From the NCBI GenBank assembly GCA_011523685.1, contig WTGG01000027.1, positions 52,980 to 116,979 of the forward strand: a DNA stretch of 64,000 bases, read 5' to 3'. The stretch's first letter is position 1; each line of letters opens with the position of its first letter. The notes below the pieces were generated by a model, which saw only the letters and a list, made by a program, of their open reading frames with translations, had not been told where the DNA came from and made no database searches. This document shows positions 4,983 through 5,014 of the stretch, piece after piece. The position numbers and the translations under genes were made by a program. The DNA comes from Coxiellaceae bacterium. GTDB lineage: Bacteria; Pseudomonadota; Gammaproteobacteria; Coxiellales; Coxiellaceae.

Positions 4983-5014
4983 TTAATATTTTTTTAATCT
5001 TTAGTTGTTAGACT
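4983..5014 (+). promoter_or_regulatory. PmrA-like tandem box (TTAATATT-tt-tTTAATCTT) plus -10-like TAGACT
   Basis: TTAAT at 4983-4987 and 4994-4998 (6-nt spacer). TAGACT at 5009-5014 lies 10 nt downstream. ATG at 5047 is preceded by GGAG. Confidence 0.5.

Follow-up and report, generated by a model that had tools for sequence, protein, structure and literature searches.

The promoter region and its gene

In the window, by which we mean the whole 64-kb stretch of DNA analysed here, a 458-aa orphan gene and the region immediately before it form a cassette with insertion-sequence genes on either side. The features of this cassette, in the order in which they occur, are as follows.

4061..4408, - strand: IS66 transposase fragment, flanking the target cassette upstream
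4855..4881, + strand: conserved 9-bp GC-rich hairpin, GCCACGTTC...GAGCGTGGC, between the remnant of a 121-aa gene and the promoter
4940..5019, + strand: conserved promoter block of ~80 nt, ATTTGTAAAAAAAA...TAGACTGCTCA, from the ortholog alignment
4982..5001, + strand: PmrA-type response-regulator box, tTTAATATT-tt-tTTAATCTT, with 9-mers at 4982-4990 and 4993-5001
5009..5014, + strand: -10 hexamer TAGACT, 7 nt (5002-5008) after the second 9-mer and 10 nt after the second TTAAT
5036..5039, + strand: Shine-Dalgarno sequence GGAG, 7 nt 5' of the ATG at 5047
5047..6423, + strand: orphan gene of 458 aa, GC 0.32, of no known family, product predicted all-helical
7606..8292, + strand: IS3-type integrase gene, flanking the target cassette downstream

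A sequence-only reading of this DNA had drawn attention to a tandem TTAAT repeat with a -10-like TAGACT behind it, in the -35 position of the orphan gene. The repeat is present as read, with TTAAT cores at 4983-4987 and 4994-4998 (+ strand) in an 11-bp register, and the hexamer, an imperfect -10, and the ribosome-binding site and start codon behind it are likewise where that reading had put them. Its placement of the repeat also proves sound: the box spans about -39 to -20 relative to the -10, and a generic sigma-70 scan of the + strand upstream of the 458-aa gene finds no canonical -35/-10 pair, as would be expected if an activator site replaces the -35. From this layout the transcription start is predicted to fall near 5020-5023. 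The longest mechanical open reading frame starts upstream of the ATG, at TTG 5005; we accept 5047 as the start because the product from that ATG is identical to a database protein (P0001).

The promoter block extends well beyond the box and includes A/T tracts and a palindrome, AAAAAAAGCTTTTTTT, just 5' of it. Further upstream, the hairpin at 4855..4881 has a folding energy of -16.1 kcal/mol (z = -4.9) and is not followed by a T-run, and 37 of 42 positions in its region are invariant in orthologs. It probably insulates the promoter from upstream transcription, in a putative terminator or insulator role; a search of the window against Rfam returned no RNA families.

The 458-aa protein

The sequence-only reading had described the product as an AT-rich, coiled-coil protein without a recognisable family and with a Ser/Ala-rich tail, and this description holds in part. 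The length of 458 aa, the GC content of 0.32, the lack of any Pfam match (even at E<=5) or PDB sequence relative, and a C-terminus ending in ...RDASASSL all bear it out; for the coiled coil there is an all-helical AlphaFold model, built from 4 sequences, of low confidence (pLDDT 51) and of insufficient quality to search for similar folds. Pfam and PDB sequence searches likewise reveal neither a eukaryotic-like domain nor a resemblance to known effectors. The tail is 79% tiny and polar residues. Counted back from the C-terminus it has E at position 12 and S at position 5, the two single positions with the highest enrichment in Burstein's table (PMC2701608). This tail is not conserved in the homologs P0003 and P0004, and C-terminal signal descriptors do not separate the box-associated proteins as a group from housekeeping proteins (p=0.26-0.58).

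Homologs are restricted to a few marine Coxiellaceae/Legionellales MAGs, forming only 4 homolog clusters (100%, 85%, 63% and 32% identity) among 5.8 billion proteins. They are also mosaic, in that P0003 resembles P0001 in the N-terminal two-thirds and P0004 in the C-terminal part. Narrow distribution, low GC and mosaic evolution are effector-type features, and the 458-aa gene displays all three.

Match to the L. pneumophila PmrA matrix

The repeat had been likened, in the sequence-only reading, to the PmrA response-regulator element of Legionella pneumophila, a likeness that withstands comparison with the L. pneumophila PmrA PSSM (Burstein et al. 2009, PMC2701608 Table S5), whose 33 positions comprise a 9-mer cTTAATatT, N2, a second 9-mer, N7 and a -10 of TAtaaT (PMC2701608). 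The box at 4982 fits this layout without any shift, agreeing in its half-sites, its 2-nt spacer and its 7-nt distance to the -10, and scores 19.4 bits of a maximum of 32.7; only one site in the 64 kb scores higher. That reading had also considered that TTAAT-N6-TTAAT might be as frequent in random AT-rich DNA; the repeat occurs 4 times in the window against 0.65 expected, which is above chance, and the extended form TTAAT-N6-TTAAT-N10-TANNNT occurs twice against 0.02 expected, a count that 0/100 shuffles reach.

Four PSSM sites in the window score at least 15 bits. When the sequence is shuffled in 100-nt blocks, which preserves local AT-richness, 0.53 such sites are expected and 1/300 shuffles reach 4; when the columns of the matrix are permuted instead, the expectation is 0.50 and 0/300 permuted matrices reach 4. 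The excess is also specific to the geometry, in that among 60 spacer combinations the canonical N2/N7 yields the 4 sites and each of the 59 others yields 0-2.

As a positive control, the PSSM picks out one orthologous site near the icmT operon in ~50 of the 80 Legionella dot/icm loci scanned (1.57 Mb), against a background of ~0.8 sites per 64 kb elsewhere in these loci. This Legionella site reads CTTAATAAwwyCTTAAkwTT-N7-TATnAT (L012 1499-1530, + strand; orthologous position in ~50 loci, L014-L067) and lies just 5' of a small ORF (~70 aa) in front of icmT-icmS. One marine Legionellales MAG (L094) has a dot/icm cluster in which such a PSSM site is absent.

Other sites and their orphan genes

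Besides the box at 4982, the window holds the following sites that fit the layout of the matrix.

32548..32580, + strand: best site, tTTCATATT-tc-cTTAAGCTT-N7-TATAAT, 22.5 bits, 37 nt 5' of orphan gene 32618..33178
24118..24150, + strand: second same-architecture site, tTTAATATT-ct-gTTAATTTT-N7-TAGATT, 18.6 bits, 85 nt 5' of orphan gene 24236..25303
27513..27545, + strand: fourth site, aTCAATCTT-tt-aTTAATATG-N7-TATTAT, 15.7 bits, 32 nt 5' of orphan gene 27578..28036 (27578 being the probable start)
258..290, - strand: weaker site, gTTAATGAA-tt-gTTAATCTA-N7-TATATG, 10.4 bits

All four sites of at least 15 bits lie on the + strand, 32-85 nt 5' of Pfam-less + strand genes; the weaker one lies ~230 nt 5' of a Pfam-less 297-aa gene whose start is near 29 and which continues past the window edge. 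Counting window ORFs of at least 150 aa, a site of at least 15 bits precedes 4 of 13 Pfam-less genes and none of the 33 that have a Pfam family (Fisher p=0.004), and the best upstream PSSM scores of the two classes differ in the same way (Mann-Whitney p=0.0002). The pattern continues beyond the window: in the same genome just outside it, a 22.0-bit site (L008) precedes a Pfam-less 219-aa gene and a 17.6-bit site (L095) a Pfam-less 405-aa gene, and two related contigs (L003 and L005) each have a 22.9-bit site before a Pfam-less gene. Box-associated genes have a GC content of 0.32-0.39 compared with a mean of 0.435 in housekeeping genes, and no paralogy was detected among the orphan genes. Taken together the sites give a lineage consensus of tTTAATATT-yt-tTTAATnwT-N7-TAnnAT. 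With several such promoters in its vicinity, the box at 4982 looks like a real regulatory site.

Some candidates were set aside. One TTAAT-N6-TTAAT at 15867-15899 (- strand) is not counted, as it scores 8.5 bits and has no -10 at N7; the repeat itself (15883-15898, - strand) is followed by CATAAT only 1 nt after the second 9-mer, and lies 60-75 nt 5' of a Pfam-less gene at 15118..15825 (- strand). PSSM sites at 701 (+ strand, 13.6 bits) and 44149 (+ strand, 14.3 bits) were rejected as PmrA sites because they are by-products of the ~180-nt repeat shared by two ankyrin gene copies (described below), on the strand opposite its gene.

The gene at 27578-28036 (+ strand) has an N-terminus, 'ELTCPITLDVLTD...CPYT...NKALRDRLYSW', that by eye resembles a U-box signature. 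A U-box assignment is unsupported: there is no Pfam match, a PDB sequence search is negative, and a single-sequence model (pLDDT 62) has a best Foldseek PDB match of E=1.1.

Organism, regulator and secretion system

MAGs of the relatives come from Tara Oceans and other marine metagenomes and are labelled by NCBI either 'Coxiellaceae bacterium' (GCA_002731975.1, GCA_003450655.1) or 'Legionellales bacterium', and on the strength of the former label we take the organism to be in the right clade for a PmrA-controlled Dot/Icm system. No pmrA, pmrB or other response regulator and no dot/icm gene turned up in the window itself, in ~15 kb of flanking sequence or in the loci of the relatives, and the sequence covered beyond both window edges holds housekeeping genes and orphans only. 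At 60019-60522 (- strand) a 167-aa protein matches YrbL, the 'PhoP regulatory network' family, below threshold (25.4 bits, cutoff 31.5).

For the secretion system we searched with L. pneumophila DotL of PDB 6sz9, which was reached from R64 TrbC (R64 TraU has no PDB relative). Only Legionella appears among the matches listed in the protein search, and in the scan of genome contigs the best 80 of 135 matches are all Legionellaceae. A search with a Berkiella-like profile, built from 50%-identity representatives, lists Berkiella, Francisellaceae and unclassified MAGs, none of the listed matches being labelled Coxiellaceae. By analogy with its order, this genome would likely have a Dot/Icm system, because a T4BSS is reported in almost all Legionellales, while being partly missing in some small Coxiellaceae MAGs (Hugoson et al. 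2022, PMC8896642).

Possible signs of host interaction come from other genes. Near the start of the window is

407..673, - strand: ankyrin-repeat protein of 88 aa (Ank_4, 28.2 bits, above Pfam's cutoff)

and a paralog of it with a frameshift lies at about 43950-44125 (- strand), the two copies sharing a ~180-nt repeat of ~80% identity (560-740 and 44010-44190). The paralog falls within a 3.3-kb region (42525-45878) of low GC (0.32-0.35) that lacks both an Rfam match and any ORF of at least 150 aa, and that may be a decaying accessory region. In the related contig L005, a 409-aa protein has a sub-threshold match to the eukaryotic N-terminal asparagine amidohydrolase family. Judged from their sequences, the ankyrin genes and this match may be read as indirect signs of host interaction.

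Comparison with known PmrA-type systems

In its layout the promoter recalls the PhoB pho box, where a direct repeat of 11-bp periodicity replaces the -35 at a fixed distance upstream of the -10 (class II activation), but half-site sequence and signal are different. L. pneumophila has about 40 PmrA sites in 3.4 Mb, a density exceeded by the local one here of about 5 sites in 80 kb, and the PmrA consensus in Coxiella is TTAA-N6-TTAA. The element before L. pneumophila ceg and effector genes (Zusman et al. 2007; PMC2701608) has the same tandem 9-mers (c)TTAATatT, separated by the same 2 nt, and no -35 element; its TAnnnT -10 likewise follows at a distance of exactly 7 nt, and it takes the same position 30-90 nt before orphan low-GC genes, with several sites per genome region. 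It differs from the sites described here in the first position of the 9-mer, which is mostly T here instead of C, in the -10, which is TAGACT here, and in the host, which in our case is an uncultured marine member of the Coxiellaceae.

The PmrA regulon of C. burnetii, which takes in cig genes as well as dot/icm operons (Zusman 2007 and Beare 2014, as cited in PMC9934583), belongs to the same family, Coxiellaceae; many of its targets are hypothetical proteins, and the element serves as a predictor of Dot/Icm substrates. There the element also stands before dot/icm operons and the genes of several proteins that are not translocated (PMC9934583). In enterobacteria, the PmrA/BasR box of the pbgP/arn promoters (PMC3973317) has the same half-sites, CTTAAG/xTTAAT, 5 bp apart in an 11-bp register, and is bound head-to-tail by an OmpR-family dimer (PMC3973317), but its regulon concerns LPS modification and not secretion, and the box takes other positions relative to the promoter. 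Since the enterobacterial box shares half-sites and register, the repeat alone marks the PmrA/BasR/QseB subfamily and not T4BSS effectors.

One alternative reading takes the box as a genuine PmrA/QseB-family site whose gene is not a secretion substrate. The gene would then be part of a general regulon for the envelope, stress or host cues, comparable to those cig genes of Coxiella whose products are not translocated or to LPS modification under enterobacterial PmrA. The box of Salmonella and Klebsiella has these half-sites and this register with no secretion link (PMC3973317), and even among C. burnetii proteins with PmrA elements Cig28, CBU_0787, Cig3 and Cig40 are not translocated (PMC9934583). 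The absence of an effector-like domain from the 458-aa protein, the uninformative C-terminal descriptors and the DotL searches, with no match labelled Coxiellaceae among those listed, all fit such a regulon too. What it accommodates poorly is the company the sites keep: the genes behind all 8 good sites are orphan, low-GC and fast-evolving or swapped, none being an envelope or metabolic gene, which is the profile of Legionellales effector repertoires, and host interaction is suggested both by the clade and by the ankyrin gene close by. We regard it as a credible, though on balance unlikely, alternative. That the 458-aa protein is a candidate Dot/Icm substrate is, by analogy with Legionella and Coxiella, a reasonable hypothesis, plausible if somewhat short of probable.

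Conservation across orthologous loci

A metagenome scan for orthologs returned 2 loci only, one with the same promoter and the other without its 5' end, and the box together with TAGACTGCTCA is present in every orthologous locus that covers the 5' region. Across four distinct orthologous sequences 18 of the 20 box positions are invariant, both TTAAT cores among them, as are 16/18 positions (89%) of the segment from the box to +1, including the -10. Conservation ends right after TAGACTGCTCA, and invariant positions elsewhere amount to 67% in the A/T-tract part, 41% in the upstream spacer, 34% in the 5'UTR and 26% at the start of the coding sequence. In L006, the most diverged informative ortholog, the box is 90% and the -10 segment 94% identical and all flanks are 45-55% identical; in L007 the box is 100% conserved although the protein is only 32% identical. 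Because the whole 80-nt block is conserved and only four distinct sequences are available, the constraint is not assignable to the TTAAT cores alone.

This last point bears on the possibility of an ordinary constitutive sigma-70 promoter in AT-rich DNA, in which an UP-element, curved DNA or a Fis/IHF site accounts for the conservation and the TTAAT cores are incidental. The A/T tracts and palindrome 5' of the box are indeed conserved along with it, the intergenic DNA is very AT-rich, and four sequences cannot isolate the cores. Against it, the sigma-70 scan shows no -35 element; both nulls give ~0.5 sites where 4 are observed, only the N2/N7 geometry is enriched, and the unrelated promoters at 24118, 32548 and 27513 and in L008, L095 and L003 share with the box its half-sites and spacing but not the A/T tracts. 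We consider this explanation improbable.

Cassette surroundings and gene turnover

The cassette has been relocated with respect to the IDH/SLT synteny of L003 and L007, and its upstream neighbour of 121 aa, which L003 carries whole at 9427..9792, is cut off near 4635 in the window. One might suppose that recent horizontal spread of a mobile promoter-gene cassette, and not selection on a binding site, explains the conservation, as the IS66 fragment, the IS3-type integrase gene, the truncated neighbour and the non-syntenic position would suggest, but this is very improbable indeed, because a recent transfer would leave everything similar, whereas the L006 flanks on both sides have fallen to 45-55% identity around a box and -10 of 90-94% and the L007 downstream protein is down to 32%, and the promoter block moreover occurs only once in the window.

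Behind a second promoter of this type the gene itself appears to have changed. The same 22.9-bit promoter and ~45 nt of leader are conserved between L003 (5425-5457, - strand) and L005 (2099-2131, - strand), and the proteins encoded behind them, of 208 aa and 409 aa, are unrelated. It is tempting to speculate that in this marine Coxiellaceae lineage PmrA-type promoters act as fixed expression slots, in which the promoter, and sometimes the 5'UTR, stays near-invariant while the ORF is replaced or recombined, an idea that we put forward tentatively and think rather doubtful as a general rule.

Rearrangement is also visible elsewhere in the window. An ABC-F ATPase gene at 29342-31162 (- strand) has a 53-aa duplicate of its N-terminus ~1.1 kb upstream, at 32293-32454 (- strand), as though an insertion had duplicated its target; within the insert is an ORF at 31360..31809 (149 aa, with a signal-peptide-like N-terminus). 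The best PSSM site, at 32548, is situated just beyond the duplicate.

Proposed mechanism and implications

We hypothesize that the tandem TTAAT box is recognised by a PmrA-type response regulator of the OmpR/PhoB family in its phosphorylated form. Its dimer would sit head-to-tail on the two 9-mers, at about -39 to -20, where it would substitute for the missing -35 and recruit sigma-70 RNA polymerase to TAGACT, in class II activation. Transcription would proceed from near 5020-5023 through a short leader to the GGAG and the ATG at 5047, and so drive a lineage-specific, low-GC, fast-diverging and mosaic gene of an uncultured marine Coxiellaceae bacterium. The promoter would then be one member of a local regulon, with at least five such promoters in about 80 kb and more in relatives, each with an orphan gene of its own behind it. 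If Legionella and Coxiella are a guide, these orphan genes would most likely be co-regulated with the Dot/Icm system, and some of their products, possibly including the 458-aa protein, may be translocated.

That the box is a functional PmrA-family activator site, in a class II promoter serving a small regulon of orphan genes, seems to us probable. The account as a whole, from class II promoter through local orphan-gene regulon to the possible Dot/Icm link, is the one that we favour and hold to be rather more plausible than not. What the analysis shows directly is the sequence of the box together with its geometry, enrichment, conservation and company of orphan genes; which regulator binds it, how activation works, where transcription begins and any tie to secretion are inferred.

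If correct, this adds a new lineage to a known system and does not overturn current understanding. In Legionella and Coxiella, PmrA elements are already an accepted means of finding Dot/Icm substrates, and the occurrence of the same element, in the same geometry, in an uncultured marine member of the Coxiellaceae suggests that this regulatory logic may be family-wide. A simple matrix scan could then nominate host-interaction genes in MAGs even where no effector domain is recognisable. A promoter that is kept while its ORF is swapped hints, in addition, at how such repertoires diversify. Were expression slots to prove general, the PmrA box would offer a direct way into the unrecognisable effector repertoires of uncultured marine Legionellales, and promoter-anchored gene swapping would be a route by which effector repertoires turn over.
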